Source: a virus
Lineage: Duplodnaviria; Caudoviricetes
IMG/VR virus record: IMGVR_UViG_3300010998_000005
Coordinates: 14,095 to 78,094 of that record
DNA: 64,000 nt
Direction: 5' to 3' (one strand)
The position numbers were made by a program, and so were the translations under genes. The notes beneath the pieces were generated by a model. It was given only the letters and a program-made list of their open reading frames with translations, was not told the origin of the DNA and made no database searches. Shown piece by piece: positions 3,275 to 21,060 of this stretch. Each line of letters begins with the position of its first letter. The first letter of the stretch is position 1.

Positions 3275-4135
3275 ATGACAGAGGATTTAGAGAAAAAGGT
3301 TGAGCGTGCGATAAAACTCATTCAGAGTGCGAGTAAGATTGCTGCTGCTAATGGTTGTCCTGAAATAGAGGTGTGTTATTCAGGCGGCAAAGATTCCGAT
3401 GTTATCTTGGAGTTGACGAAGATGGCTGGTGTGCCTTATAGGGCTATTTACAAGAATACTGGCATAGACCCTAATGGAACTATCAGACACGCAAAAGACA
3501 ACAACGTAGAGATAATGCCGCCGAAGAAGAAGTTTATAGACCTGCTTGCTTATTATGGTATGCCTTCACGCAGAAACAGGTATTGCTGTCAGCATTTGAA
3601 AGAGTACAAGATACTTGACTATGCTATATTGGGTATAAGAAGGGATGAAAGCGTGGCAAGGAGGGAACGATACAAGGAGCCAGAGCAATGTCGGGAATAT
3701 AGCAAGAAAGAGAAATGTCGGCAATACTTTCCTATACTTGATTGGACGAAAGATGACGTGTTGGGGTTTATCAAAGAACGTGGTATCAAGTTGCATCCTA
3801 TATACTACAAGGACAATGGGGAGATAGACGTGGAACGCAGATGCGGCTGCATGGGATGCCCTATGGCTTCATACAAAAAGCGTCTTGAGGAGTTCAAGAA
3901 GTACCCCAATATGGTTAAACTTTATGTACGTGGTGGGGGGCAATACCTTGACAATCACAGCCTTAGCAAGATTGCGAAACTATGCAAAGATGGTTATCAG
4001 TTCTTTTGCTTTGACGTTTTTTGCGAACGCTCAAACATTAGATTCCAACAAAAGTTTGGTGCAAACCTCTTTGATGACGGCATAGACTGCAAGAAATTCT
4101 TGGAGGACTATTTCAAGATAAAGTTCAAGGATTAA
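3275..4135 (+). CDS. PAPS reductase / DndC-like PP-loop protein
   Basis: YSGGKDS PP-loop, RNRYCCQHLKE, GIRRDES, PILDWT and RCGCMGCP motifs typical of the family. Confidence 0.85.
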   Translation: MTEDLEKKVERAIKLIQSASKIAAANGCPEIEVCYSGGKDSDVILELTKMAGVPYRAIYKNTGIDPNGTIRHAKDNNVEIMPPKKKFIDLLAYYGMPSRRNRYCCQHLKEYKILDYAILGIRRDESVARRERYKEPEQCREYSKKEKCRQYFPILDWTKDDVLGFIKERGIKLHPIYYKDNGEIDVERRCGCMGCPMASYKKRLEEFKKYPNMVKLYVRGGGQYLDNHSLSKIAKLCKDGYQFFCFDVFCERSNIRFQQKFGANLFDDGIDCKKFLEDYFKIKFKD

Positions 4136-4971: not shown

Positions 4972-5538
4972 ATGTTAGAAAAGATTGAAGAATACACCAA
5001 TCGTGCCTATGCCAACGCTCGCAAGCACGGCTTTCACGACGAGGAACTAAGCATTGAGCATTGTTTAATGCTTGTAATAACCGAGGTGTCGGAAATGGTA
5101 GAAGCGGACAGAAAGGATAGGGAAAGGGCTTCCGTTGAAATCTTTGTTGATGCTTTGCGAAATGTAAAGTTTACGCAGGCATTTGAGGACTATATCAAAG
5201 ACCGTGTTCCTGATGAAATGGCTGACGTGTGCATACGTTTGTTTGACCTCTTGGGTGTATTAGACAAAAAGGAAAGGATAGACTTCGATATGCTTGGACG
5301 TGTCATTAACACAAGCAAAAAGAGTGTAGGCTTTGATGCCATGTCCTTTACCGAGCGTGCGTATGCTTTATGTGGTATATTGACAAACAAGCCTCATATC
5401 GCTATACGACTTGTATGCCGTGCGCTGGCTTTTGTTATGTATTGGGCAAAGGACTTGAATATAGACCTTGACTGGCATATTGAAATGAAGATGCAGTACA
5501 ACGAATTGCGTGCAAACAAGCACGGAAAGAAATATTAA
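4972..5538 (+). CDS. MazG-like nucleotide pyrophosphohydrolase (all-alpha NTP-PPase)
   Basis: LMLVITEVSEMVEADRK and DEMADVCIRLFDL acidic metal-binding helices. Confidence 0.75.
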   Translation: MLEKIEEYTNRAYANARKHGFHDEELSIEHCLMLVITEVSEMVEADRKDRERASVEIFVDALRNVKFTQAFEDYIKDRVPDEMADVCIRLFDLLGVLDKKERIDFDMLGRVINTSKKSVGFDAMSFTERAYALCGILTNKPHIAIRLVCRALAFVMYWAKDLNIDLDWHIEMKMQYNELRANKHGKKY

Positions 5539-6383: not shown

Positions 6384-6788
6384 ATGAATAAGAAACCGAA
6401 ATTCTACATTAAGAACGCAAAGGGCAGATACGAGGAATACAAAGAACCCGTACAAGACTACGACAACAAGTTATACCGTAAAGTGGGTAACAGATATGAG
6501 CCTTGCGATATGCTTGTAACGCAAAGTTTAAGCGAGGGTGTGTGGGTAGTGACCAAGCATAAAAGCAGTAAGTCCTATGCAAGCGGAAAATATCTTTTGG
6601 AAAACTTCATGTGCCTAAAGGCGAGTGACATTCAAGAAGTATCGTTGGCAAAGTTAGGCGGTATGGAGAAGTTAGCACACTATCTATCGCAACATTGGGA
6701 TGAGTTACCTACAAACGCAAGCCAATACGAGCGATGTCAAGCGATAGTAGGGTTGTTGTTCAAGTACGAAAATCACAACGAAAGTTAA
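6384..6788 (+). CDS. Hypothetical protein
   Basis: ORF track, co-directional within the operon. Confidence 0.7.
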   Translation: MNKKPKFYIKNAKGRYEEYKEPVQDYDNKLYRKVGNRYEPCDMLVTQSLSEGVWVVTKHKSSKSYASGKYLLENFMCLKASDIQEVSLAKLGGMEKLAHYLSQHWDELPTNASQYERCQAIVGLLFKYENHNES

Positions 6789-6943
6789 AATTTTGGTGTA
6801 TTCAAATTCTTTTCGTAACTTTGCACAAGAATTAGTTGAAAGTGGTGTGCGAGACCGCTAATGACAATACTTATAGCCCCTTTCGTGTAGGTGATACTCG
6901 CACTATCCCTACCGATTGGGGCGTTTTATTTGGAAAATGTAAA

Positions 6944-7786
6944 ATGGAATATACGAAAGATAACCCACTTAAAGTAATAACCCTTTGCAGTGGTTATGAT
7001 AGTCAGTGCCTCGCCCTGAATAGATTAAAAGGGTGTTATCCCGATTTCGACTATGAATTAGTTGCTTGGTCTGAGTTTGACCCCGAAAGCAAAGCATCGC
7101 TGGAGAAGCAGCCTGCGGTTATAGCACATAATGCCTTATTCCCACAATGGAAAGACCGCAATCTTGGCGATATGACTAAAATAGAGTGGAATAAACTAAA
7201 TCTGCAATGCGACTTATTGTTTTATAGTACTCCATGCCAGAGTATTTCCGCGGCAGGACTGCAACACGGATTTGTTGAGAGTAGCGGTACACGTTCAAGC
7301 ATTATCTGGAACGTGCGTGATGCAGTAATAGCACTAAAACCAAAATTCCTATGCCTTGAAAATGTTAAAGCAATGGTGTCAGGCAAGTTCGTGGGAATGT
7401 TTAATCTGTGGCAGAGAGAGTTGGAAAAACTCGGCTATGCTAACTTTGCACAAGTCCTTAATTCTAAAGACTACGGCGTACCACAAAACAGAGAGCGTAT
7501 ATTCCTCGTTTCAATAAGGATTGACAATGAGAATGATTACCCTAAGTATTATTTCCCACAGCCTTTCCGTTTGGAAAAGAAACTCAAAGATGTGTTAGAG
7601 GACAATGTGGACGAGAAGTATTACCTGAGTGATGAAAGGGTGCAGGGTTTAATGGCAAGTACGGAGAAAGAGCAGGAGCGTGGAAATGGCTTTGCGTGGA
7701 ATCCGACAGATGGCAGCGGTGTTGCTTGCACCATTCAGACGACACAGAACAGGAAAACGGATAATTACTTGTTTGATGAACAATAA
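6944..7786 (+). CDS. C5-cytosine DNA methyltransferase, N-terminal catalytic part (motifs I-VIII)
   Basis: Motif I TLCSGYD, catalytic STPCQ, motif VI ENV, motif VIII DYGVPQNRERIF; motifs IX-X are missing. Probable start ATG 6944. Confidence 0.9.
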   Translation: MEYTKDNPLKVITLCSGYDSQCLALNRLKGCYPDFDYELVAWSEFDPESKASLEKQPAVIAHNALFPQWKDRNLGDMTKIEWNKLNLQCDLLFYSTPCQSISAAGLQHGFVESSGTRSSIIWNVRDAVIALKPKFLCLENVKAMVSGKFVGMFNLWQRELEKLGYANFAQVLNSKDYGVPQNRERIFLVSIRIDNENDYPKYYFPQPFRLEKKLKDVLEDNVDEKYYLSDERVQGLMASTEKEQERGNGFAWNPTDGSGVACTIQTTQNRKTDNYLFDEQ

Positions 7787-7971
7787 AATTACCCCCCCAG
7801 AGGTGGATATGCGAACAGCGGATACCGACACCGCAGACAAAGGATGGTTGTTGTCCTGCGTTGACAGCGACATACGATTATGCGAGTTTTGCGAATATGT
7901 TTAGCGTGGGTCATTATCCAAGGATGGGTGTAATAGAGATAGGTCATTATGAAGAAGTTTATACCGATTAA
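7776..7971 (+). CDS. MTase variable-region cassette 1 (frame broken at C7 tract 7792-7798)
   Basis: With C6 it reads MNNKITPQRWICEQRIPTPQTKDGCCPALTATYDYASFANMFSVGHYPRMGVIEI... Confidence 0.6.
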
Positions 7972-8882: not shown

Positions 8883-9044
8883 AATTAGGGTACTATATAA
8901 AGCCCAACCGAAAGAATCCGAGCAAGGGTGTGGTGTATAGCATTGAAGGCATTGCACCTTGTATGTGCGATTTTTCTGGGGGGGGGTAATTTAGTGCCGA
9001 CAATAGTAGTAAAAGATGAACGGGAAAGTAAAGAAACTGTTTAA
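8864..9044 (+). CDS. MTase variable-region cassette 8 (G9 tract 8978-8986 places TAA in frame)
   Basis: MRDRIIKLGYYIKPNRKNPSKGVVYSIEGIAPCMCDFSGGG*; with G8 it continues GNLVPTIVVKDE... Confidence 0.6.
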
Positions 9045-9158
9045 CATCTACGGCTTTGATGGCGGCAACTTCGCAGGGAATGTGTACGACCCTGAATATA
9101 TCAGTCCTGCCCTCAGCACAATGGGGGGGGTAATCAGCAACCTTTAATAATTACAGAT
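9016..9158 (+). CDS. MTase variable-region cassette 9 (G8 tract 9123-9130; G9 would fuse it to the C-terminal gene)
   Basis: MNGKVKKLFNIYGFDGGNFAGNVYDPEYISPALSTMGG; with one extra G it reads GNQQPLIITDMEQKQK... in frame with 9159. Confidence 0.65.
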
Positions 9159-9431
9159 ATGGAACAGAAACAAAAAATCACCTTGCCTAAAGAATTAGAG
9201 GGCAAGAAGTTTAGAATCAGAAAACTTACTCCGAGAGAATGCGGACGTTTGCAAGATGTGGATGATAAAGACATTGACATCATCGAGAACGCAGGTTTGA
9301 GTAATTCAGCAATGTATAAATTGTACGGGAATAGTATAACTTTATCGGTCTTATTTTTCATTTTTGAAGAATTATTTATACCTTTGCACCCGAAAAGGGG
9401 CAAAGAGCCTATTCAATTATTATTATTTTGA
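9159..9431 (+). CDS. C5-cytosine DNA methyltransferase, C-terminal part (motifs IX-X)
   Basis: RIRKLTPRECGRLQ (motif IX) and YKLYGNSI (motif X). Confidence 0.85.
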   Translation: MEQKQKITLPKELEGKKFRIRKLTPRECGRLQDVDDKDIDIIENAGLSNSAMYKLYGNSITLSVLFFIFEELFIPLHPKRGKEPIQLLLF

Positions 9432-9432
9432 T

Positions 9433-10728
9433 ATGAGAAAGGAAAAAGTAATTCAGATGGATTTAGATGGAAACTACATTTCCGTCTTTGAAAGTGCAGT
9501 TGCTGCTTCTAAAGCATTAGGAGTTGGTTGTGGTAACATAAGTTTATGTTGTCGTGGACTTGCGGACAGAGTAAAAAATTATCGTTTTAGGTATGTTGAT
9601 GATGTACTAAACGAAAAAGCCGTGAAAATTCGACAAGTACGACACAACAAAGCGTCAGATAACCACAAGAAGGCATGGATTCCGAAAAGGAGAAAGGTTT
9701 ATCAATTCTCTTTAGATGCAGTATTGATTGCTTGCTATAAAAACGCAGATATAGCATCAAGTAAAAACGGAATCCCAAAGCATCTAATATTCCAATGCTG
9801 TAATGGGACAATCATCCAAAGCGGAGGGTATATATGGAGTTATAATAACAAAGTAGAATCTGTATTGAAGAACGATATTCCAACTGAACAAGGAGAAGAG
9901 TGGCGTGATGTAGTCGGGTACGAAGGTCTTTATATGGTAAGTTCTTTTGGTCGAGTTTGGAGTTTAAGGAGGAGAACAGAAAAAGTCGGGAATTTGATAG
10001 GTGGATTTATGCTTACAAACCATATAGACAATAGGGGGAGAACGTCCAACACGCTAACAACAAAAAATGGGGAAAAAGTTAATGCAGTAACCGCTCGTCT
10101 TGTTGTAATGTCTTTTATTCCTAATCCAGACAACCTTCCTCAAGTAAACCATAAGGATGAAAATCCATTAAACAACCATGTGGATAATCTTGAATGGTGT
10201 ACGGCTAAATATAATTGCAACTATGGAACAAGGATTGAAAGGATTAAAGAGAAGCAAAACATACCAATACTCCAATACACACTGAATGGTGAATTTGTTG
10301 CAGAATACGCTTCAATGCACATTGCCGCGGATGCTATAAATGCAGATGCAGGACACATTTGTGATTGTTGCTTGGGAAATAGGTCTTATGCCTATGGTTT
10401 CTTTTGGCGTTACAAAGATGATGAAATGTATAATTCTGCCAAAGTAAGGCTGCAAGATAAAATTTCCGCAAGTAAAAAATCGAGAGCAGACAAGTTTACG
10501 GCGAGAGCATTAAATGTAGTACAACTTGATATGAACGGTAAATATATACAGACACATCAGTCAAGTAGGCTTGCAGCGGAAAGAGTTGGAAGTTTCCGAC
10601 CAATGATTATAAATTGTTGCAATGGGAAAATATCAAATGTTAAAGGCTACAAGTTTATGTACGAGCGAGATTTCCGCAAGATGTTCATAGAAACGGAAAA
10701 CGAAAGCCAACAACTAAGTTTATTCTGA
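9433..10728 (+). CDS. HNH homing endonuclease with NUMOD4 and multiple NUMOD1-like DNA-binding repeats
   Basis: EEWRDVVGYEGLYMVSSFGRV (NUMOD4), QVNHKDENPLNNHVDNLEWCT (HNH), four VxQxxLxG...S...A(S/A) repeats. Confidence 0.85.
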   Translation: MRKEKVIQMDLDGNYISVFESAVAASKALGVGCGNISLCCRGLADRVKNYRFRYVDDVLNEKAVKIRQVRHNKASDNHKKAWIPKRRKVYQFSLDAVLIACYKNADIASSKNGIPKHLIFQCCNGTIIQSGGYIWSYNNKVESVLKNDIPTEQGEEWRDVVGYEGLYMVSSFGRVWSLRRRTEKVGNLIGGFMLTNHIDNRGRTSNTLTTKNGEKVNAVTARLVVMSFIPNPDNLPQVNHKDENPLNNHVDNLEWCTAKYNCNYGTRIERIKEKQNIPILQYTLNGEFVAEYASMHIAADAINADAGHICDCCLGNRSYAYGFFWRYKDDEMYNSAKVRLQDKISASKKSRADKFTARALNVVQLDMNGKYIQTHQSSRLAAERVGSFRPMIINCCNGKISNVKGYKFMYERDFRKMFIETENESQQLSLF

Positions 10729-10733
10729 TATAA

Positions 10734-11543
10734 ATGGGAGAAAGTATGATTGAACTTGACCATATCTATTGTGAAGATTGTTTAATCGGCATGAAGCGGA
10801 TTCCTGACGGGAGCGTGGATGCGGTGATTTGCGATTTGCCGTATGGGACAACCGCCTGCGCCTGGGACTCCGTGATACCCTTCGACAAGTTGTGGGAGCA
10901 GTACCGACGTATCTGCAAAACAAATGCTCCGATAGTGCTGTTTGGCATAGAGCCATTTACGGCGGCTCTCATTATGTCGAATGTAAAGGAGTTTAGGGAG
11001 AAATTAACATGGGAAAAACATAAACCGAGTAATATTGGCAATGCAAAGTACATGCACCTAAAATATTCGGAAGACATTGTAGTATTCTCCCGTGGAAAAT
11101 GCACTTTTAATCCTCAAATGCAACCAAGAATAAGCGACAGAGTAAGAGAGGCGCAAAAAGGGAACAGTAAGCAATGGCGTAGTAATCGCAAGGAAACTGG
11201 CGAAGTGTCTTTTGCAACGCAATATGAGCCGCGAGATTGGAACTCATTTGATGCTGATAAGAAATACCCAGGAAATGTATTTTATTTCCCAGCCGTTGTT
11301 TCTAATTCCCACGAGAAATGCGACCACCCCACCCAGAAGCCCGTTGACCTGCTGCGCTATCTCGTGCTGACCTACACCAACGAGGGCGACACGGTGCTCG
11401 ACAACTGCATGGGCAGCGGCACGACGGCCATCGCCTGTATCAAGGAAAAGCGGCACTTTTTAGGATTCGAGCTGAATGAAGATTATTACAAGAAAGCAAT
11501 CAAGAGAATAGAAGTTGAAAAATCTCAATTAACGCTATTTTGA
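10734..11543 (+). CDS. N4-cytosine/N6-adenine DNA methyltransferase (beta class)
   Basis: CDLPYG catalytic motif, HPTQKPVDLL and LDNCMGSGTTAIA SAM-binding motif. Confidence 0.9.
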   Translation: MGESMIELDHIYCEDCLIGMKRIPDGSVDAVICDLPYGTTACAWDSVIPFDKLWEQYRRICKTNAPIVLFGIEPFTAALIMSNVKEFREKLTWEKHKPSNIGNAKYMHLKYSEDIVVFSRGKCTFNPQMQPRISDRVREAQKGNSKQWRSNRKETGEVSFATQYEPRDWNSFDADKKYPGNVFYFPAVVSNSHEKCDHPTQKPVDLLRYLVLTYTNEGDTVLDNCMGSGTTAIACIKEKRHFLGFELNEDYYKKAIKRIEVEKSQLTLF

Positions 11544-11544
11544 C

Positions 11545-12108
11545 ATGAAAGAAGAATGGAAAGAAATAGATGGTCATAGTGGGTACATGGTATCTAACTA
11601 TGGAAACATAAAAAGCCTGTCATTTAACAAGACTGGTGTAGAGAAAAAACTTACACCATGCGTTGATAAGAAAGGCTACCTTTTTGTGTGTCTTCACGGT
11701 AAACAATTAAGGGTACATAGACTTGTGGCATTAGCATTTATACCAAAAGTTAATGGAAAAGAACTAATCAACCACATCAATGAGGATAAACAGAATAATG
11801 CCGTATGGAATTTAGAGTGGTGTACCGCATCTTATAATCTTAATTACAATGGTAATAGAGAAAGGATTTCCAAGAAGCACAAAAAGAAAGTGTATGCTTA
11901 TAAAGATAAAGAGTTATTTCAATCTTTCGACAGTATAACAGAAGCCGCTAAAGCGTTCGGTGTTTCTATCAATAATATATCTTCGTGTTTACACGGAAGA
12001 AAGAAACAAGCATGTGGGTGTGAATGGTCATTCGAGTTGAACAAGGAATACTACGACAAAGCCATGAAGCGCATCGACAACGAACGCCGACAACTGACAT
12101 TATTTTAA
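11545..12108 (+). CDS. NUMOD4-HNH-NUMOD1 homing endonuclease carrying an MTase-derived C-terminal tail
   Basis: EEWKEIDGHSGYMVSNYG, RVHRLVALAF, INHINEDKQNNAVWNLEWCT; tail FELNKEYYDKAMKRIDNERRQLTLF. Confidence 0.85.
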   Translation: MKEEWKEIDGHSGYMVSNYGNIKSLSFNKTGVEKKLTPCVDKKGYLFVCLHGKQLRVHRLVALAFIPKVNGKELINHINEDKQNNAVWNLEWCTASYNLNYNGNRERISKKHKKKVYAYKDKELFQSFDSITEAAKAFGVSINNISSCLHGRKKQACGCEWSFELNKEYYDKAMKRIDNERRQLTLF

Positions 12109-12438
12109 TTATCACCCCGAACCCCGAAAGCATAACAATAAAACTATGTAACATTCAAAAGGAGATACAACTATGACACAATACATCAACAAAGCCGCTG
12201 TAGTGGCGGAGAGTTCAACAGTTGCGACTTTATGACGTTCTCTCCGCGAAAAGGTTTTGTATGTAGCAAATATTTTGATGACTGAGTATGCGTATGATGC
12301 CGAATTTGGCACTTTTCGTGGCTTCTGGCAGCTTCGAATCGCAAAATGGTGTAGTTATCATGTCGGTTGGAGAAATGCGCTCAGAGCGGCTTAAATGCGT
12401 TTTTGGTTTTTTAAGTTAATAAATTCAAAGAATAAGAT

Positions 12439-12903
12439 ATGGAAGAAAAGAAGACACACATCTACAATCTGCAACTGACAGAAAAGCAGGCAACGCTGTT
12501 GTCCTACGCTTGCGACAGACTTTCACGAATCATCTGCGGGCAAGACTGGACTTATCAAGAGTTCATGGAAGAAGCGTGGGAGAAACGCTGCAAGGAAGCC
12601 ACTGGCAACATGATGGATGATAAGTGGGATGGCGGTTGGCACAATATGCGGCATGAAGCGGAAGAAATCAGCAAGAACATCAAGAAGAGGTTTTGGGGTT
12701 TGGAACGTAATGCCATGTACGGCATCCACTATGACGATGCGGCGGACATTCTATTTGACTTGCACCAATGTATCAGACACCAACTTTGGCTCGATAGACC
12801 CGAAAGCGAGAAATCGACTATCACGGTGGATGCTTCCGAGGCAATGCGTGTTGGAAATGAGCCGTTGGCAATTATTGAACGGATAAAATATAAAGAACTA
12901 TGA
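12439..12903 (+). CDS. Hypothetical protein
   Basis: ORF track; overlapping operon structure. Confidence 0.75.
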   Translation: MEEKKTHIYNLQLTEKQATLLSYACDRLSRIICGQDWTYQEFMEEAWEKRCKEATGNMMDDKWDGGWHNMRHEAEEISKNIKKRFWGLERNAMYGIHYDDAADILFDLHQCIRHQLWLDRPESEKSTITVDASEAMRVGNEPLAIIERIKYKEL

Positions 12904-13157
12904 CAAGAGAACAATTCGAGACGTTAAAGGTTGGCGACAAAGTACGCCATGCTTTCGGTGGTATCGGTGTTGTCACGGAGAAAGAGGAAAACGGCTATAC
13001 GGTGAAAGATAAAGGCTTTGACCAAGGTGATGGAATGTGTGAGGTTTCATTTGCATGGAATGAAGGTGAGATATGGTTGCCAACAGGGGTAATGGAATCT
13101 CCTTCTAAAACATTTCCAAGAGTTAATGAAGAACGGATAAAAGACAAGGCGGAATAG
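12900..13157 (+). CDS. Hypothetical protein (possible SH3/KOW-like)
   Basis: LKVGDKVRH..GGIGVV pattern; ATGA overlap with the upstream gene. Confidence 0.65.
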   Translation: MTREQFETLKVGDKVRHAFGGIGVVTEKEENGYTVKDKGFDQGDGMCEVSFAWNEGEIWLPTGVMESPSKTFPRVNEERIKDKAE

Positions 13158-13159
13158 TT

Positions 13160-13585
13160 ATGTTACAGGCGAGAACGAAAGAACAGAATGAGCACATCGA
13201 AGGTATCGTAAAAAAATATGTCGACGTGAATACGCAAAACAGCAAATTTGTTTCTGCGGATGTTTATAAAAACTTTGAAGAACTTGTTGAAATCAATTTA
13301 AGATGCGAAGATTGTGATGAATTATTATCCATTGATATTCGTTTCGACATGATGGCTGAAATTGTCGATTACTTGCGAAAAGAGAATGAACAAATAGAAA
13401 CTCCAACTCGATGTGAAGTTTCTTTTTCTGACGGTATATTGAGTTATGGCTTGCTGCATACACCACATGAGGAGGTGATGAATTTCTGTAAGAAACTTGC
13501 ATGGGTGAAAGGTAATGACTTTGACTATTATTACAAGCAGTACGTTAAAACAAGAAAGATAACGATACGAATGAGGGAGAAGTAA
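13160..13585 (+). CDS. Hypothetical protein
   Basis: ORF track; tight packing. Confidence 0.7.
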   Translation: MLQARTKEQNEHIEGIVKKYVDVNTQNSKFVSADVYKNFEELVEINLRCEDCDELLSIDIRFDMMAEIVDYLRKENEQIETPTRCEVSFSDGILSYGLLHTPHEEVMNFCKKLAWVKGNDFDYYYKQYVKTRKITIRMREK

Positions 13586-13734
13586 TATGAACAGAAGACA
13601 GAAAAATAAATACCTAAAGCGTAATGTGCCATGTGCACACGAATATCGGTATATGGCATATTACGGTGATATAGCGACACGTTGCCTTTGCAAAACGAGC
13701 AAAGAAGACAATGACTGCTGTAATACGCTGAAAC

Positions 13735-13956
13735 ATGAAAATAAAAATAGTTCCAAGATGGGAGCAATTTATGGCTCCAGAAGGGTATGAAACAAAACTA
13801 TACGATGTGTATCATGGCTTCACCCACTTTCTGTTCTTTACCAAGTGGAAGTTAGATAAGGCAGGTCTTGACGAACAAGAAATGAAAGAGTATCTGCAAC
13901 CATTTATGTTTGGTCATTCACCCTTATTGGTATCTAAAATTACGATAAACTTATGA
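13735..13956 (+). CDS. Hypothetical protein
   Basis: ORF track; ATGA overlap with the next gene. Confidence 0.6.
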   Translation: MKIKIVPRWEQFMAPEGYETKLYDVYHGFTHFLFFTKWKLDKAGLDEQEMKEYLQPFMFGHSPLLVSKITINL

Positions 13957-14393
13957 AAAGTAAAATCTACGAATTTGACCCAGTGCTTTATCCGTTCCCT
14001 ATCCATGTCACAAAAGACTTTGACAAGGAAGAACTGAAAAGCATCTACAACGGAACGAACAGTGAAGGAGATGAAGTGCCATTGGATATAGATATTCCAT
14101 CCACGACTACGGCAAGAACATTTCAAGCCGTGGAAAAGGAAAGTGGAAATCACTATTACCTTGTCTGCTTGTTAAAGCCCGAAGATATAGGTGCAGGAAT
14201 TGTGGCACACGAAGCCGACCATATTACCAATGCCTATTTGCAGGACTTGGGCTTTTCCTTACCTACACCTTGGAATGATGAACCTCATGCCTATTTCCTT
14301 CAATGGGTGACTGACTGCATTTGGTCTGTCTTGATAAATGAGCCAGAAGAAATGAAAGGAGTATTGCTTGACCAAAAATCAGGGGAACAATGA
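13953..14393 (+). CDS. Small HExxH (zincin-like) protein
   Basis: IVAHEADH...NDEPHAY motif. Confidence 0.55.
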   Translation: MKSKIYEFDPVLYPFPIHVTKDFDKEELKSIYNGTNSEGDEVPLDIDIPSTTTARTFQAVEKESGNHYYLVCLLKPEDIGAGIVAHEADHITNAYLQDLGFSLPTPWNDEPHAYFLQWVTDCIWSVLINEPEEMKGVLLDQKSGEQ

Positions 14394-14580
14394 ACACAAT
14401 TAGACAATCAGCGAAAAAATGGTGCAGAACATTAAGGCATTAAAGTATGGCAGCAAAAGCGTGTATTCTTAATTGTAAACATTGGATGTGTGTGGAAAAT
14501 TACTGCATAGTTAGCGGTTGCAAGCCGCCAACGACTTACGACCCTGAAACGTGCCCTTATTTCAAATCAAAGAAGAAATT

Positions 14581-14880
14581 ATGAAATGGCGTAAAGTAAA
14601 GAAGCAGTTCAAGAAGGACAAACACAAGTATTTGGGACTAAACCTTGTCGCACAAGATTCGACTGGCATGAATGTGGGCATGGTAGTAAGTGACGTAAAG
14701 ATTCGTCCCGCTGGCGGAAAGCAAGTCTATTACGACTTTGAGGCTGAACCGATACAGAGCAAGTTGTGGGTGCCGAGAGAAGAGCCCAAAGGCTATTATT
14801 CCAACCACGAATTCAGCGCAACCTTTGACATAACTATTGATACACCGACAAAGGATTTGAAGAAATTATTGAATATGTAG
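14581..14880 (+). CDS. Hypothetical protein
   Basis: Probable ATG start MKWRKVKK within track ORF 14551..14880. Confidence 0.65.
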   Translation: MKWRKVKKQFKKDKHKYLGLNLVAQDSTGMNVGMVVSDVKIRPAGGKQVYYDFEAEPIQSKLWVPREEPKGYYSNHEFSATFDITIDTPTKDLKKLLNM

Positions 14881-14970
14881 ATTTTTATGGAATAAACTTT
14901 CTTAATAATCCTTAAACAATTTACGAATACCAAATATAAGTAGTATTTTTGCAAAAGAAATAAATAATCA

Positions 14971-15070
14971 ATGTGGCGTGTCCTACTTAAAGCCACAAAG
15001 ATAACAATAGATACTTGCAGGCGTGATGAACGGGTAGTAGGACACCTTAGTAGTCACGCTTGCAAAGTTT
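14971..15070 (+). promoter_or_regulatory. Structured leader of the replication initiator gene
   Basis: GTGTCCTACT (14978-87) / AGTAGGACAC (15036-45) and TTGCAGGCGTGA (15015-26) / TCACGCTTGCAA (15054-65). Confidence 0.6.
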
Positions 15071-15955
15071 ATGCAGGTTACAATGAAAAAAAAAAGAACA
15101 TCTTTTGTCTTTTATGGCGATTGGTATGATGCCATTTGCGGACTTGATGACAGTACGGCTTTAGAGGTCTGTAAATCCATTATGGCTTACGCCCTTGGAA
15201 GAGATGAGCCAAAACTATCCGACATGGCAAAAGCAATAATGATGCTTATACGACCCCAAATTGATAGAGATACCGAAAAATGGCTTAATACAAGAGAAAA
15301 GCGAAGTATCGCAGGAAAAAAGCATAAAGGAAATCAATATAGTAAAGTGGAACAAATGGAACAAAATGGAACAAATGGAACAAATGTTCCAACAATGGAA
15401 CAAAATGGAACAAATGGAACTGTTAATGTAAATGATAATGTAGATGTAGATGTTAATGATAATGTTGTTACCATAGATGATAACAAACAATTATCTTCAT
15501 TACATTCAGATAATATAATATCAACTAAAGTTGATGCGTCATCTTCTCCTGTCTGGGCAGAGAATTTTGTAAAATTCTTTAATAATGCGATAGACAGGAA
15601 TAATTCGGTAATAGCAAAAATAAGAATTATTCAAGGGAATAGGGAAAAGCAACTGAAAGCGAGAATAAAGCAATATGGGGAAGAAGCCGTATGTGAGGCT
15701 ATCACAAAAGCAACGCAATCTGCTTTCCTTAACGGGCAAAAAGGATTTATAGCAACAATAGACTGGATATTAAAACCAAACAACTTTCCAAAAATCTTAG
15801 AAGGTAATTATGACAACAGAGAAACAAGCGTATTTAGAACCAATGAATGTGAGCAGATTAATAAGCGGATTGCCTACGGACAGCAGACAACAAGACTTAT
15901 GCGAGAGGAAGAAAATGTCCTTAACCTTGCAAACGCGGACAATCCACCGTTTTAA
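15071..15955 (+). CDS. Replication initiator (DUF6291-like N-terminus, DnaD-like C-terminus)
   Basis: RTSFVFYGDWYDAI...IMAYAL N-domain, internal DNA repeats, and C-domain ATIDWILKPNNFPKILEGNYD. Confidence 0.75.
   Translation: MQVTMKKKRTSFVFYGDWYDAICGLDDSTALEVCKSIMAYALGRDEPKLSDMAKAIMMLIRPQIDRDTEKWLNTREKRSIAGKKHKGNQYSKVEQMEQNGTNGTNVPTMEQNGTNGTVNVNDNVDVDVNDNVVTIDDNKQLSSLHSDNIISTKVDASSSPVWAENFVKFFNNAIDRNNSVIAKIRIIQGNREKQLKARIKQYGEEAVCEAITKATQSAFLNGQKGFIATIDWILKPNNFPKILEGNYDNRETSVFRTNECEQINKRIAYGQQTTRLMREEENVLNLANADNPPF
15348..15420 (+). repeat. Iteron-like repeats (7x TGGAAC[AA]) inside the initiator gene; probable replication origin
   Basis: Copies start at 15348, 15357, 15367, 15376, 15396, 15406 and 15415, followed by an AT-rich stretch. 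Confidence 0.7.
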
Positions 15956-16475
15956 GACCAAGGAAGAATTGCTCTTGAAAGCAAACAAAGACTCCGGCTC
16001 TTACTTCGTGCGCAACGAAAGAATTGCGTTTATGGGGGAATATCCCACGCTTACGGATTTAAGGAAAGCATACGGAGAGGGAACAGATGTACAGTGGCTC
16101 TTACCGCAGATAGGCTCTTTGGTAATGTTTACAGGTGCAAAGATGATGGACGAGGAACAACAAAGATACCTTGCAAGGATTATTGCCACCGACTATCATT
16201 TCTTGAAGATTACCGAATTATTGATATTCTTCCATAAGTTTGCAGCAGGGGAATACGGAAAGTTCTACGGCTCGGTAGATGCCCTTACCATAATGGAGGG
16301 GTTAAGGGATTTTATGAACTATCGGATTTACGCCCTGCAAAAGTATGAACAGGAAGAGCAAGAGGAAGAAAGGCAAGAGGAAGAAAAGAAAAACCCTCCC
16401 TTGTCTTTGCAAGAATGGCGAGAGATTAAGGCAATAATCGCAATGTATAATTCCGACTACACAATAGAATACTAA
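15915..16475 (+). CDS. Replication accessory protein (DUF6633-like), possible helicase loader partner
   Basis: Directly follows the initiator; YPTLTDLRKAYG...ELLIFFHKFAAGEYGKFYG pattern. Confidence 0.5.
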   Translation: MSLTLQTRTIHRFKTKEELLLKANKDSGSYFVRNERIAFMGEYPTLTDLRKAYGEGTDVQWLLPQIGSLVMFTGAKMMDEEQQRYLARIIATDYHFLKITELLIFFHKFAAGEYGKFYGSVDALTIMEGLRDFMNYRIYALQKYEQEEQEEERQEEEKKNPPLSLQEWREIKAIIAMYNSDYTIEY

Positions 16476-16539
16476 CAAATAATTATTCACAAACAAAAGA
16501 AAGAAATTATGAAACCAGAAAAAAGCAAAGAAGTTCTTT

Positions 16540-16941
16540 GTGGACTTCGACAAGGCAATGAGCGACGATGAAACTTTCTTCGCACTATGGAACAAAGACA
16601 GTGACAAGGAAAACACCACCTTGGTTGTTGCACCTAATACGGTGGAAAGCCAAGCGCAGGCAGCAGCCATATTGGCAAAGCGCATTTACGAAGGAATGAA
16701 CGGTGAGGGTAACGAAAACGATAAGGTGCTTGCCGATATAATCGTGTTCGCAGTCAAGAAAGCATTTGAATGGCAAGAGGAAGATGATGAAGAAGAATAC
16801 GATGAAGATGAAGACTACAAAGAAGAAGAATGTGCCGATTGTTCCGATATGCGCACTTGCAACGAAAAGAAAGCAATAGCATATCGCAAGAAACACCATA
16901 TACCAAGACCAAAGAAGAAATCAAACAAAAAAATAAGTTAA
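16540..16941 (+). CDS. Hypothetical protein with acidic stretch and CxxC
   Basis: ORF track. The natural start may be ATG 16509, which is out of frame by one A. Confidence 0.7.
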   Translation: MDFDKAMSDDETFFALWNKDSDKENTTLVVAPNTVESQAQAAAILAKRIYEGMNGEGNENDKVLADIIVFAVKKAFEWQEEDDEEEYDEDEDYKEEECADCSDMRTCNEKKAIAYRKKHHIPRPKKKSNKKIS

Positions 16942-17082
16942 AATATTTGGTATATTCAAAATAAAATAGTACCTTTGCATTGTACTTATGTGATTACATG
17001 ATTTTTTGTTTGATTTAATGGTAGATAATAATTGCTTACACCTACAAGGCTTGTGATAAGTAGTAGTAGGTTTTTCAAAAAT

Positions 17083-17154
17083 TGGCGTATGGTGTAGCGG
17101 TAGTCACATTTGCCTTTGGAGCAAATAGCCCAAGTTCAAATCTTGGTACGCCAA
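17083..17154 (+). tRNA. tRNA-Gln (TTG), CCA not encoded
   Basis: Acceptor TGGCGTA/TACGCCA, anticodon arm TTTGC-CTTTGGA-GCAAA, T-arm CCAAG-TTCAAAT-CTTGG. Confidence 0.92.
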
Positions 17155-17163
17155 CAAAGTTAA

Positions 17164-18339
17164 ATGTTTAACGAAAACGAAAAAGAAAAAGAAAGTATGA
17201 AAATTCAATTAAACGTAAATGACATCCTTACGCCGCTTGTAAACGCAACAAGCGTGGTAGGCACAAAGAACTCTATCGCAATCCTTTCTTGCGTAATGAT
17301 TGAGGTAGGAAAGAACAACACCCTTATAATTACGGCAAGCGATGGCTCGCAATGGGTTTCCACTAAGGCGACAATCATAGAAACGGATATTGCCGAGGGA
17401 ACAAAGTTCTGCATCGAAGCAAAGGACTTAAAGCAAGCTCTGTCTAACCTTTCAGGGCGTATCGTAGAACTTAACTTTGATGAAACAGCGCACACGATGA
17501 CTTGTGCTTTCGCCAATGGTAAGTTTACGTTGCCATACCTTAGTGCAGATGAATACCCACAAAGCACACCAATAGAGGGTGATGACAAGGTGGAATACAT
17601 CTTAGACGCACCAAAGATTGCAAGAATGATTGCGCAAACCAACTACGCAATGGCTAACGACCCATTGAGAATGGTTATGAACGGTGCGTACTTTGATTTC
17701 CATAAGGATGACCTTTCCATTGTGGCAAGTGACGGACATAAACTCGCACTTTGCCAAGATAAGACCATAAAGAACGAAGATGGCGAGGACAAATCCTTTA
17801 TCCTTATGGCTAAGTCTGCAAGCATCCTATCTACGTTAATAGACAAAGAGGAAGGACAAATCAAGATTGCTTTCAACGGTAATAATGTTTGCATCAACAA
17901 CCAGAGCTTCAGACTTACGGCAAAACTCATAGAGGGCAGGTTTCCCAACTATAATGCCGTGATACCAAAGGATAGCGACAAAAGGGTTAAGGTGAACAAG
18001 GATGATATACTTAGCGCAATGAAGCGCATACTGCCTATGAGTAGTACAACGACCGAGATTGTAAAGTTTATCTTTTCACCAAACCTGCTTACTTTGTTCT
18101 GCGAGGATGTAGATTACAGCAAGTCTGCAAGTGAAACAATGCAAAGCGACTACCCTAATCAAGCGGACTTTACCATAGGCTTTAAGGGTAGCGCAGTCGT
18201 ACAATCTTTGCAAGCCATAGAGGGTGACGAAGTTGTGATACGAATGACCGAAAGCAGCAGGGCAGCGATATTCACAAGCGCAACAACCGATGAAACGTAT
18301 TCACACATAGCATTGATAATGCCCATATTGGTAGATTAA
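17164..18339 (+). CDS. dnaN: DNA polymerase III beta sliding clamp
   Basis: Three-domain clamp length; NGAYF, VASDGHKLA, KLIEGRFPNYNAVIP and IGFKG...ALIMPI motifs. Confidence 0.92.
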   Translation: MFNENEKEKESMKIQLNVNDILTPLVNATSVVGTKNSIAILSCVMIEVGKNNTLIITASDGSQWVSTKATIIETDIAEGTKFCIEAKDLKQALSNLSGRIVELNFDETAHTMTCAFANGKFTLPYLSADEYPQSTPIEGDDKVEYILDAPKIARMIAQTNYAMANDPLRMVMNGAYFDFHKDDLSIVASDGHKLALCQDKTIKNEDGEDKSFILMAKSASILSTLIDKEEGQIKIAFNGNNVCINNQSFRLTAKLIEGRFPNYNAVIPKDSDKRVKVNKDDILSAMKRILPMSSTTTEIVKFIFSPNLLTLFCEDVDYSKSASETMQSDYPNQADFTIGFKGSAVVQSLQAIEGDEVVIRMTESSRAAIFTSATTDETYSHIALIMPILVD

Positions 18340-18374
18340 AAGAAAATTCTTTTTCATATAATATATTTTTTTGT

Positions 18375-18917
18375 TTGGTAAGGGGGCGCAAAGGGCAAGA
18401 TAAGCATAATCCCACCTATCTTGTACCACCCCTTACCAATTTTAGGAAAACAAGCGAGGAAGTGAGCGACTACAACAATGACATATACGGTAATGCAAGC
18501 GACGGTTTCCTGCAAAGGAAAGGAAAAGGAAAGTACGATGGGGAACTTTCTATTGATGGTGTGAATATTTCACCTATAATGGGAATATTCTTCGAGGACA
18601 ATAATAAAACCTACCTTTGGCTAAAACGTAAACCTTTACTTGAATATGACTTTGAAAGTGGCAGATACAAGGAAAGACCACGTGAACCACGATGGGAAGC
18701 ATACTTGGAAAAACAAAGCGATGGGGTGGTAGCCTTTAAGGGCATTTTCGCCTTTCTTCGCTTCAAATACCGCATAGTCGCCATTTGGGATAGGGTCTTG
18801 GGAAAAGACTTGCAAAGAATGAATTTCTACGTGGAAAGATTACCAATGGAACAACAAACAATAATCAACAATATCAATGAACGAAAAAGACAAGATTTCA
18901 AGACTGAACGCCATTGA
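18375..18917 (+). CDS. Hypothetical protein (true start probably later, e.g. GTG 18462)
   Basis: ORF track; the first ~25 codons overlap the hairpin. Confidence 0.65.
   Translation: MVRGRKGQDKHNPTYLVPPLTNFRKTSEEVSDYNNDIYGNASDGFLQRKGKGKYDGELSIDGVNISPIMGIFFEDNNKTYLWLKRKPLLEYDFESGRYKERPREPRWEAYLEKQSDGVVAFKGIFAFLRFKYRIVAIWDRVLGKDLQRMNFYVERLPMEQQTIINNINERKRQDFKTERH
18377..18437 (+). terminator. Long hairpin downstream of dnaN (terminator or attenuator)
   Basis: GGTAAGGGG/CCCCTTACC outer stem and CAAGATA/TATCTTG inner stem. Confidence 0.55.
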
Positions 18918-19314
18918 GTCTTACGCCTCGCAACTTGTGGAATTGGTTTCCGAGGTATGTGATGTTAGCATAGAGGAAATTTTTGCAGAGGAAAAGAGGG
19001 TGCATTGCGTACACGCACGCTGGCTATATTGGTATGCCCTTAGATATATAACAGGAGAGAGTTACGAGATAATCAGCAGACCAAGGTATTTCTGTACACG
19101 CAAGTACACTTCTAATGCCGTGGGGGTTGGGGTAAAGAACATCGGGGAAATGATGGCACGTGAACCTCTATGGCACAAACGATGGATTTTACTGAAACAA
19201 GCAATCAAGGAAAAAATTTCCGATATAGATATTGTAGAAGATAACACGATAGTTATTAACGTTCCAAAAGGTATGCGAAGCCAGTTTAACGTAGTGATAC
19301 AAGAAAAGAAATAA
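18877..19314 (+). CDS. Helical protein resembling the DnaA C-terminal (domain IV) fold
   Basis: LVELVSEVCDVSIEEIFAEEKRVHCVHARWLYWYALRYITGES resembles the DnaA dom. IV pattern (V...FxISxxEI...R..xVxARxxAMYL). Confidence 0.45.
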   Translation: MNEKDKISRLNAIESYASQLVELVSEVCDVSIEEIFAEEKRVHCVHARWLYWYALRYITGESYEIISRPRYFCTRKYTSNAVGVGVKNIGEMMAREPLWHKRWILLKQAIKEKISDIDIVEDNTIVINVPKGMRSQFNVVIQEKK

Positions 19315-19331
19315 AAGAAAGGGAAAAATAT

Positions 19332-19730
19332 ATGCTATACGAAGTAGAAATATCTTACACGTCATTAGACGACAAGACTATCAAGGAAAAGTATTTGGTG
19401 GAGGCAGAAGAGTTCTTTGCCAATGTTGAACACTCCATGTATAAGAAGTTCATAACACTTAACGACCTTGATGTTACAAAGATTAAGCGTAGCAACATCA
19501 AGGAAGTGGCTAACAAGCGCAACCTTACAACCGACAAAGTATGGATTGCGCAATTGCAAGATGTGTTTGTAGATGATGAAGGAGTGGAAAAGCCCATCAA
19601 ATACAAGATTGCCTTTTTCTCCGAAACCTACGAAAGCGCAAACGACTTTATCATTGAATATTCTAAACAAGGCTATCAAATGTCGCTTGTAAGCATGAAA
19701 CTCTCTAACTTTAACGATGTAATACAATAG
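19332..19730 (+). CDS. DUF4494-family protein
   Basis: MLYEVEISY...KEKYLVEAEEF..VE...LDVTKIK pattern typical of Bacteroidota DUF4494. Confidence 0.65.
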   Translation: MLYEVEISYTSLDDKTIKEKYLVEAEEFFANVEHSMYKKFITLNDLDVTKIKRSNIKEVANKRNLTTDKVWIAQLQDVFVDDEGVEKPIKYKIAFFSETYESANDFIIEYSKQGYQMSLVSMKLSNFNDVIQ

Positions 19731-19734
19731 AATT

Positions 19735-20226
19735 ATGAGCAAGGTATTTGTAGGTGTTGACAATGGTGTAACAGGTACGATTGGAATAGTAGGAGACAAT
19801 ATACAACCACAAATATATCATACGCCAATCAAAGTAGAGCAGGACTACACCAAGGCAAAGAAAAATATAAAGCGTTTGGATTGTAGTGCCTTTATGGAAA
19901 TCTTTAGCCAATTCAACAAGAACGACATTCATGTGGTATGTGAAAGACCCATGATTAACCCTACACGTTGGAACGCATCTATGTCTGCTATCCGTTGTTG
20001 GGAGGCACAACTTATAATACTTGAAGTGTTAGGTGTGCCGCACCAATTTATTGATAGCAAGGAATGGCAAAAGGAATTGCTGCCAAAGGGTATCAAGGGT
20101 GCTGACGAACAGAAGAAAGCAAGTAAGGATATTGGCAAACGCTTGTTCCCACAACTTGCTGACTTTAAGCATACGGACTTTGACGGATTGTTGATTGCGG
20201 AATATGCACGACGTAAAAATTTGTAA
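19735..20226 (+). CDS. RuvC-like Holliday junction resolvase
   Basis: VGVDNGVTG, VVCERP and DGLLIAEY catalytic acidic motifs. Confidence 0.8.
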   Translation: MSKVFVGVDNGVTGTIGIVGDNIQPQIYHTPIKVEQDYTKAKKNIKRLDCSAFMEIFSQFNKNDIHVVCERPMINPTRWNASMSAIRCWEAQLIILEVLGVPHQFIDSKEWQKELLPKGIKGADEQKKASKDIGKRLFPQLADFKHTDFDGLLIAEYARRKNL

Positions 20227-20439
20227 ATTATGAAGTACGAAAATTATCCAAGATTATGAACAAAGAAGAATTAGAAAAACTCGCAAAACCGTTAAATGAG
20301 TGGTTGCGAAAGAACGGAAAGAACGGTGGTGCGCACACGCATATCTTTATTTACTCTAATGGTGTGGAAGTTGTTGAATCAAAAATGTTTTTTGCCGTTG
20401 ATGTTTCGGACTAATAATTGATTGTAACAAAGAAATAAT

Positions 20440-21060
20440 ATGTTAGACTTACTTTCTACACAAAACCAACTCCACACAAGGCTTGTGGACTTTACCTTGC
20501 AAGAATACTTATTCACGCTCCAAGTAGTCTTAGGAGAGAGAATAGAAGTTGCATACGCAAATACTTTTGACACGCAAGAATACAAGCGTAATATTCCATC
20601 CGAGGATGAAGAAGAATACCTTGCAAGTAAGCGCAAGGATGCCGAAATAATGTTGGAACAACAAAATTGCCGACATCTACGTGAATACCTTGAACAAGAA
20701 TACCGTAGCGACATCCAAGAAAAAGCAAGCACGCTAAAGGACTTCAAGTTTACGGGTGCTGAGGTTCAAAGGCTTTTGAATAACCTTTTGCATGAAAGGT
20801 CGCAAGAGCTAAGTGAGGCAAGTGTTAGAGATATTCTTGCACTTATCAAGAGTATGTATGATTCTGGTGCACTTGATTCGGGGGATGCTTTCAGCCAGCA
20901 TTTTGTGACCATCCCAAACAAGTACAACACTATTTGCCCTCGATGCTCACGTGAGGGCTATGCGATTGAAGGGCTTGACTTTCGCTGCGAACATTGCGGT
21001 TGCATAGCGAAGTGGGATGAAAGTTCTCGTAGATATTTTCCCGAATTAAATCACCTCTAA
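20440..21060 (+). CDS. Hypothetical protein with C-terminal Zn ribbon (possible terminase small subunit)
   Basis: CPRC...CEHC. No other small-terminase candidate is seen, so the function is inference only. Confidence 0.6.
   Translation: MLDLLSTQNQLHTRLVDFTLQEYLFTLQVVLGERIEVAYANTFDTQEYKRNIPSEDEEEYLASKRKDAEIMLEQQNCRHLREYLEQEYRSDIQEKASTLKDFKFTGAEVQRLLNNLLHERSQELSEASVRDILALIKSMYDSGALDSGDAFSQHFVTIPNKYNTICPRCSREGYAIEGLDFRCEHCGCIAKWDESSRRYFPELNHL

Follow-up and report, generated by a model that had tools for sequence, protein, structure and literature searches.

Two methyltransferase genes and two HNH genes share a terminal QLxLF

The virus record IMGVR_UViG_3300010998_000005 is a complete phage genome of 78,094 bp with terminal repeats, and its bases 14095-78094, 64,000 nucleotides in all, form the stretch analyzed here (the window). 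We describe a block of this genome in which two DNA methyltransferase (MTase) genes and two HNH homing-endonuclease genes encode products ending in QLxLF, a putative tether to the β sliding clamp, together with a clamp gene, dnaN, of the phage itself. The features concerned are as follows.

6836..7786, + strand: C5 cytosine MTase, N-terminal catalytic part with motifs I-VIII (PF00145, E 4.5e-42, profile positions 2-227 of 324)
9159..9431, + strand: C5 MTase C-half with motifs IX-X, 90 aa (PF00145 profile positions 265-322)
9433..10728, + strand: HNH1, free-standing HNH/NUMOD homing-endonuclease gene (NUMOD1, NUMOD4, HNH_3)
10734..11543, + strand: N6/N4 DNA MTase, 269 aa (PF01555, E 3.5e-30)
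11545..12108, + strand: HNH2, free-standing HNH/NUMOD homing-endonuclease gene (NUMOD4, HNH_3, NUMOD1)
17164..18339, + strand: phage dnaN, β sliding clamp (PF00712, PF02767, PF02768)

An initial annotation had pointed out four consecutive proteins with related C termini, and the translations of the open reading frames (ORFs) bear this out: the C5 MTase C-half ends in QLLLF (codons 9414-9428), HNH1 in QLSLF (10711-10725), the N6/N4 MTase in QLTLF (11526-11540) and HNH2 in QLTLF (12091-12105). Among 749 six-frame stop-to-stop ORFs of at least 40 aa, a QLxLF C terminus occurs in these four consecutive plus-strand ORFs only; two further QLxLF strings in the window are internal and lie in frames overlapping real genes. 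A third MTase (PF01555), encoded outside the window on the minus strand (G000:2917-3822), ends in QPTLF, and no adjacent HNH gene was found there. All three DNA MTases of the phage thus carry a terminal Q-[L/P]-x-L-F.

The clamp-binding motif (CBM) of bacteria has the consensus Q-phi-x-[L/M]-[F/L], or as a hexamer Q-phi-x-[L/M]-x-[F/L], with QLxLF as its strongest form (PMC11139829); the annotation had given QL[S/D]LF as the consensus peptide. All four endings in the window fit the consensus, and do so in the highest-affinity form; QPTLF fits apart from its Pro at position 2.

HNH cassettes very likely interrupt the 3' ends of both methyltransferase genes

Both HNH genes begin 1 nt after the stop codon of an MTase gene and have no stop codon of their own. 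Their ORFs, homologues with 33% identity (E 9e-25), combine an HNH_3 catalytic motif with NUMOD DNA-binding modules; the HNH_3 score of HNH1, 24.4 bits, is slightly below the 24.8 cut-off. HNH2 starts at the ATG at 11545, 1 nt past the stop of the N6 MTase, and for HNH1 the ATG at 9433, 1 nt past the C5 stop, is more likely the start than the TTG at 9364, which gives the two genes matching arrangements.

The last 18 codons of HNH1 (10672-10725) correspond to a captured ancestral C5 tail, FRKMFIETENESQQLSLF, which agrees at 17 of 18 residues with the tails of the intact C5 C-halves P0265, P0369 and P0380. In the relative L083, the C5 C-half is uninterrupted and ends in FRKMFIETDADIEPGEQMSLF. 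From about 9357 onwards, the C5 C-half of the window carries a replacement tail; it is unique among 120 homologues in having FIPLHPKRGKEPIQLLLF, and the tail resembles that of another C5 subclade (IFE.LF.P...QLELF, e.g. P0435). The N6/N4 MTase gene repeats this layout, with an AT-rich replacement tail from about 11463 and with a captured ancestral N6 MTase tail as the last ~25 codons of HNH2 (12031-12105). The last 24 residues of HNH2, ELNKEYYDKAMKRIDNERRQLTLF, match the intact MTase homologue P0002 at 20 of 24 positions, a better fit than that of the window MTase's own tail to its best matches (16-17/24).

Base composition at third codon positions (GC3) is 0.41-0.43 in the C5 body, 0.29 in the C5 replacement tail, 0.31 in the HNH1 body and 0.50 in the HNH1 captured tail; the corresponding values for the N6 MTase body, its replacement tail, the HNH2 body and the HNH2 captured tail are 0.54, 0.31, 0.32 and 0.65. 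Moreover, the sites are polymorphic for the presence of the insertion, the C5 C-half being uninterrupted in L083 and in more than 100 clusters and the N6 MTase being uninterrupted in most loci. Only the four closest of 120 HNH2 homologues have the tail (73-83% identity, all 187 aa, junction EWSFEL), while more than 110 stop at ...GGYxWxY without it. At the locus L035, an HNH gene with 62% identity has its own stop and lies 2 nt past an intact MTase ending in QQTLF, which is plausible as the starting arrangement for tail capture.

Taken together, these data make it very likely that an HNH cassette sits inside the 3' end of each of the two MTase genes. Such a cassette would comprise the tail of a donor MTase with its stop codon and, after 1 nt, an HNH ORF lacking its own stop. 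It would have entered a different MTase allele by recombination, the right junction falling within the sequence that codes for the tail. The MTase would now use the replacement tail that arrived with the cassette, and the captured tail would be the right-hand homology arm of the mobile element. The four endings look alike because each HNH ORF reads in frame into the original MTase tail; since the HNH tails are captured MTase 3' ends, the "four proteins" reduce to two MTase genes, plus the third elsewhere. We did not count the persistence of QLxLF in the replacement tails as a separate sign of selection: these tails resemble those native to other MTase subclades, so that the evidence is the same as that from the family-wide conservation described below.

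These findings divide the proposal of the initial annotation that methyltransferases and nucleases alike are tagged for the clamp. It is supported for the MTases, whose tails fit the consensus and are conserved, and is not supported in that form for the HNH proteins, whose tails are captured MTase ends. The suggestion that the homing endonucleases may have hijacked the tag finds no support in that form either, as their tails are ancestral MTase 3' ends read in frame and HNH relatives have no such tail except where they share this insertion. We infer that the HNH proteins carry it largely as a by-product of their insertion.

Alternatively, the HNH endonucleases might make use of the captured tail: tethered to the replisome, they would favor homing by cutting MTase alleles that are still naive while a co-infecting genome is being replicated. 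Clamp-tethered nucleases exist, for example MutL and NucS/EndoMS (PMC9690074), and five HNH2-type clusters (73-100% identity) keep both the in-frame junction EWSFEL and an open tail, which ends in QLxLF in four of them and in QPTFF in one. The captured tails, however, track the local intact MTase alleles (20-22/24 identities), as expected from fresh capture or gene conversion without selection on the HNH protein. The tail-less majority of HNH homologues and the L035 arrangement also argue against such a function, as does the failure of an HNH2 query to find a second tail-capture locus in IMG/VR, where most matches were MTase tails covering residues 164-187 only. We therefore regard a functional HNH tail as unlikely.

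Of the cellular homologues of the N6 MTase, the best (63% identity), located at L094:3600-3780 in the Bacteroidales metagenome-assembled genome LUJR01000019.1, has an in-frame stop. The stop falls between GIGI and LMQEYY, which corresponds to the site of crossover or insertion in the window. The tail of this homologue ends in QLKLDLTL and contains a hexamer-type clamp motif.

The tail is conserved among methyltransferase homologues

A lack of conservation of the tails in homologues had been named by the initial annotation as a finding that would speak against its reading; conservation is what we observed. In the C5 C-half family, the motif is terminal in 115 of 120 close-homologue clusters. 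Q1 is found in 114/119, L2 in 115, L4 in 113 and F5 in 112 (94-97% each), position 3 is free (T57, S50), and the linker preceding the motif varies in length and sequence. When representatives at 50% identity were considered, 109/150 carried the terminal motif and six more had it near the end; among these, 8 of the 12 unsplit C5 enzymes longer than 300 aa end in the motif. Close homologues of the N6/N4 MTase end in Qxx[LIM][FLW] in 33/120 cases, and the final 14 residues of 12 others contain Qx(x)LF (45/120 in total). Here the distribution is patchy, common in viral loci and rare in cellular genomes (8/80), and hexamer variants QL[KR]LDL are also present. Across 80 related loci, 32 of 2941 ORFs end in Qxx[LIM]F, and at least 29 of the 32 are MTases.

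The tail lies outside both Pfam domains and is common to MTases of two families, one matching the Pfam model PF00145 and the other PF01555. In an AF2 (AlphaFold2) model of the N6/N4 MTase with a predicted local distance difference test (pLDDT) score of 86.9, the last helix spans residues 249-264 and QLTLF (265-269) is coil; the mean pLDDT of the last block is 74. Judged by these comparisons, the MTase tails are under selection.

The conservation pattern contradicts the view that the endings arose by chance or are a structural part of the MTase fold without any ligand function. This view has in its favor that many N6/N4 family members work without the tail. It is hardly compatible with the confinement of the ending to these few ORFs among the 749, with its position outside the Pfam domains and in a coil of the model, with its occurrence behind a linker of variable length in more than 100 C5 homologues, or with its presence in two MTase families; we give it very little credence.

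Motif-like endings were also seen in other MTases. A separate group of small viral MTases of ~200-235 aa with the signature ...ACELDKEYYDKAM.RI..H.., found in IMG/VR loci from many samples (L184-L236), ends in QQKLF, QLTMF, QIRMF or QTKLF in 47/57 loci. A homologue of the third MTase with 76% identity, in an 80.6-kb relative with dnaN (G012; L013:6479-7364), occupies two frames and is split near 6680. Its reading frame ends in ...QQKLFKDETEK, so that the motif-like QQKLF is not terminal.

The phage clamp retains a peptide cleft, and the phage lacks a recognizable polymerase

The full-length dnaN reported at 17164-18339 is confirmed: the three β-clamp domains are detected with E values of 1e-24, 5e-18 and 6e-11, all above cut-offs, and the protein matches β clamps in the PDB down to E 2.5e-40. 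Because the Pfam domain and all homologues begin at M12 (MKIQL...), the start at 17197 is likelier, and the ORF has 11 extra N-terminal codons (17164-17197). We compared the phage DnaN with that of E. coli at cleft residues of the kind listed in the 2024 clamp review (PMC11139829). R152, G174, H175, L177, P242, V247, M362 and P363 are identical, and L155M, T172S, R176K and V360L are conservative. Of the 12 residues of subsite I, 10 are either unchanged or conservatively replaced. According to this alignment, the phage DnaN keeps the peptide cleft.

The annotation's remark that no DNA polymerase is visible in the window extends to the whole 78-kb genome, in which no family A, B or C polymerase was found. 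Pfam and PHROGs scans of the main ORFs likewise gave no helicase, primase or convincing clamp loader. The genome does encode a DnaD-like initiator, RecT, a RecE-like exonuclease and a Holliday-junction resolvase. Lacking a polymerase of these three families, the phage can reasonably be assumed to employ the host replicase, and in a genome with neither a polymerase nor a convincing clamp loader, the phage clamp must work with host factors.

The co-occurrence of tailed MTases with dnaN, which the annotation had suggested examining, is found in one direction: among relatives at least 90% complete, 9/9 dnaN-positive phages have a tailed MTase, while dnaN-less complete phages are tailed as well. 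Divergent phage clamps were missed by the PF02767 profile alone and were recovered with a profile built from eight phage DnaN sequences.

The tail may couple methylation to replication

The endings, their conservation and the cleft of the phage clamp suggest that the MTase tail is probably a β-clamp-binding motif. In the model that we propose, the tail would attach the enzyme to clamps that remain on freshly replicated DNA, either host DnaN or phage DnaN loaded by the host clamp loader, and phage DNA would be methylated as it is made and so escape host restriction. DinB proteins of Bacteroidales end in ..QLLIDF.. or ..QLTIDF.., and the likely host group therefore uses ordinary clamp motifs. 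For the combined reading, that is clamp-tethered, replication-coupled methylation together with HNH cassette insertion into the MTase genes, we estimate a probability of roughly 0.6.

Several observations weigh against this reading. QPTLF of the third MTase has Pro at position 2, for which the precedent, QPLLI of MutL, shows atypical binding. The phage DnaN departs from that of E. coli at two positions in subsite I and at several in subsite II (R246A; Y323, R365), the alignment there being uncertain. A majority of cellular-genome N6/N4 homologues, 63/80 (~36-63% identity, most 40-48%), lack the tail, which is thus dispensable for the N6/N4 enzyme. Tailed MTases occur in the complete phages without dnaN G019 and G053 (QLKLF), G039, G040 and G047 (QLDLF...) and G081 (a C5 MTase with QMSLF), and the tail is therefore not dependent on a phage clamp. 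Finally, the 9/9 co-occurrence is statistically weak because the dnaN-positive relatives represent only three or four lineages.

The tail could also be a conserved short linear motif whose partner is not the clamp: it might bind another phage protein, direct packaging of the MTase into the capsid for co-injection, or act as a C-terminal degron limiting the lifetime of the MTase. Conservation proves selection and not the identity of the partner, and a tail that is frequent in viral MTases and rarer in their cellular homologues would suit a phage-specific one. Against this stand the exact agreement with the clamp consensus (Q1, aliphatic 2, free 3, L/M 4, F/L 5), the coexistence of pentamers and QLxLxL hexamers, a feature shared with established clamp clients (PMC11139829), and the absence of the tail from any other phage protein family in the 80 loci. 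A non-clamp partner thus appears improbable, and clamp binding is the reading that we follow below.

Relation to known clamp clients and homing elements

Known clamp clients with a C-terminal CBM include Pol II (QLGLF), Pol IV (QLVLGL), UmuC (QLNLF), MutS, Hda and MuC of phage Mu. The last was recently shown to be a clamp client, and its excess is toxic, apparently by clamp titration (10.1101/2025.01.04.631326). The MTase tails resemble these in having Q-L-x-L-F on an exposed end, pentamer and hexamer variants and a free position 3; they differ in that the carrier of the putative CBM is a DNA methyltransferase. Our search of the literature turned up no DNA MTase, whether from bacteria or from phages, that is presented as a client of the clamp, and the word methyltransferase is absent from the 2024 clamp review (PMC11139829). 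In eukaryotes, DNMT1 is tethered to the sliding clamp PCNA by a short motif, and methylation follows the fork (PMC9690074). There is no homology between the two systems, which pair a PCNA trimer with a PIP box in one case and a β dimer with a CBM in the other, and the purpose would likely differ as well, being protection from restriction in the phage as opposed to epigenetic inheritance. The phage DnaN shares with other phage-encoded homologues the three-domain β clamp and the conserved peptide cleft, with the difference that it stands in a genome without a polymerase or convincing clamp loader.

More tentatively, phage MTases might form a large, previously unlisted class of β-clamp clients, a counterpart in prokaryotes of DNMT1-PCNA, and polymerase-less phages might encode an extra DnaN to provide landing pads while sparing the clamps of the host replisome, whose titration apparently makes an excess of MuC toxic; we consider this possible, at somewhat less than even odds. 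If the tails bind the clamp, phage DNA methylation would be coupled to the fork, and DNA MTases would join the clamp partners. This would help to account for the protection of every new genome copy, in phages with many MTases, ahead of attack by host restriction enzymes. It would further suggest a reason for stand-alone dnaN genes in polymerase-less phages and provide a simple means of recognizing replication-coupled MTases by sequence in metagenomes.

Free-standing homing endonuclease genes may insert into a gene and bring a substitute 3' end along, as in the Allomyces mitochondrial atp6 element and the seg/mob genes of T-even phages. The window cassettes are similar in that the endonuclease ORF lies directly behind a foreign C-terminal coding copy with the original 3' end displaced downstream, and their HNH plus NUMOD architecture is I-HmuI-like. 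They differ in three respects: the endonuclease ORF continues in frame through the displaced 3' end, which supplies its C terminus, both tail copies keep the putative CBM, and two related cassettes occur in two unrelated adjacent MTase genes. The paired tail swap and tail capture would provide a clean natural example of a mobile gene that keeps its host gene working.

Other features of the genome

Between the two parts of the C5 gene (7786-9158), the window holds several short ORFs in different frames that resemble target-recognition modules. The breaks between them coincide with poly-C/poly-G runs of 8-9 nt (e.g. near 7795, 8165, 8985 and 9125). The C5 region of L083 (6789-7761) is broken up likewise, so that the fragmentation is not a one-off sequencing error. 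Recoded stop codons were set aside as the cause, since the breaks of the window lie at poly-G/C tracts and L083 shows the same fragmentation. A search for related loci with the C5 N-half as query returned three loci only.

A megablast search of positions 9000-21000 gave no match among GenBank phages. Upstream of the MTase block, the window encodes a PAPS-reductase domain protein (3275-4135; PF01507, phrog_424) and a MazG-like pyrophosphatase (4972-5538; phrog_9236), which may be further DNA-modification or nucleotide-pool genes. Outside the window, the minus strand encodes a serine recombinase (L082:7992-8825, corresponding to G000; Resolvase N-terminal domain, E 9e-25). In this genome with its terminal repeats, it could serve as an integrase or as an invertase. 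Proteins with acidic ends, ...D(S/L)DLPF or ...EDCPF, were noted in unrelated viral loci (L084:43-1497, L085:1391-1843 and L085:3632-5716); these ends resemble the C-terminal partner-binding tip of SSB.

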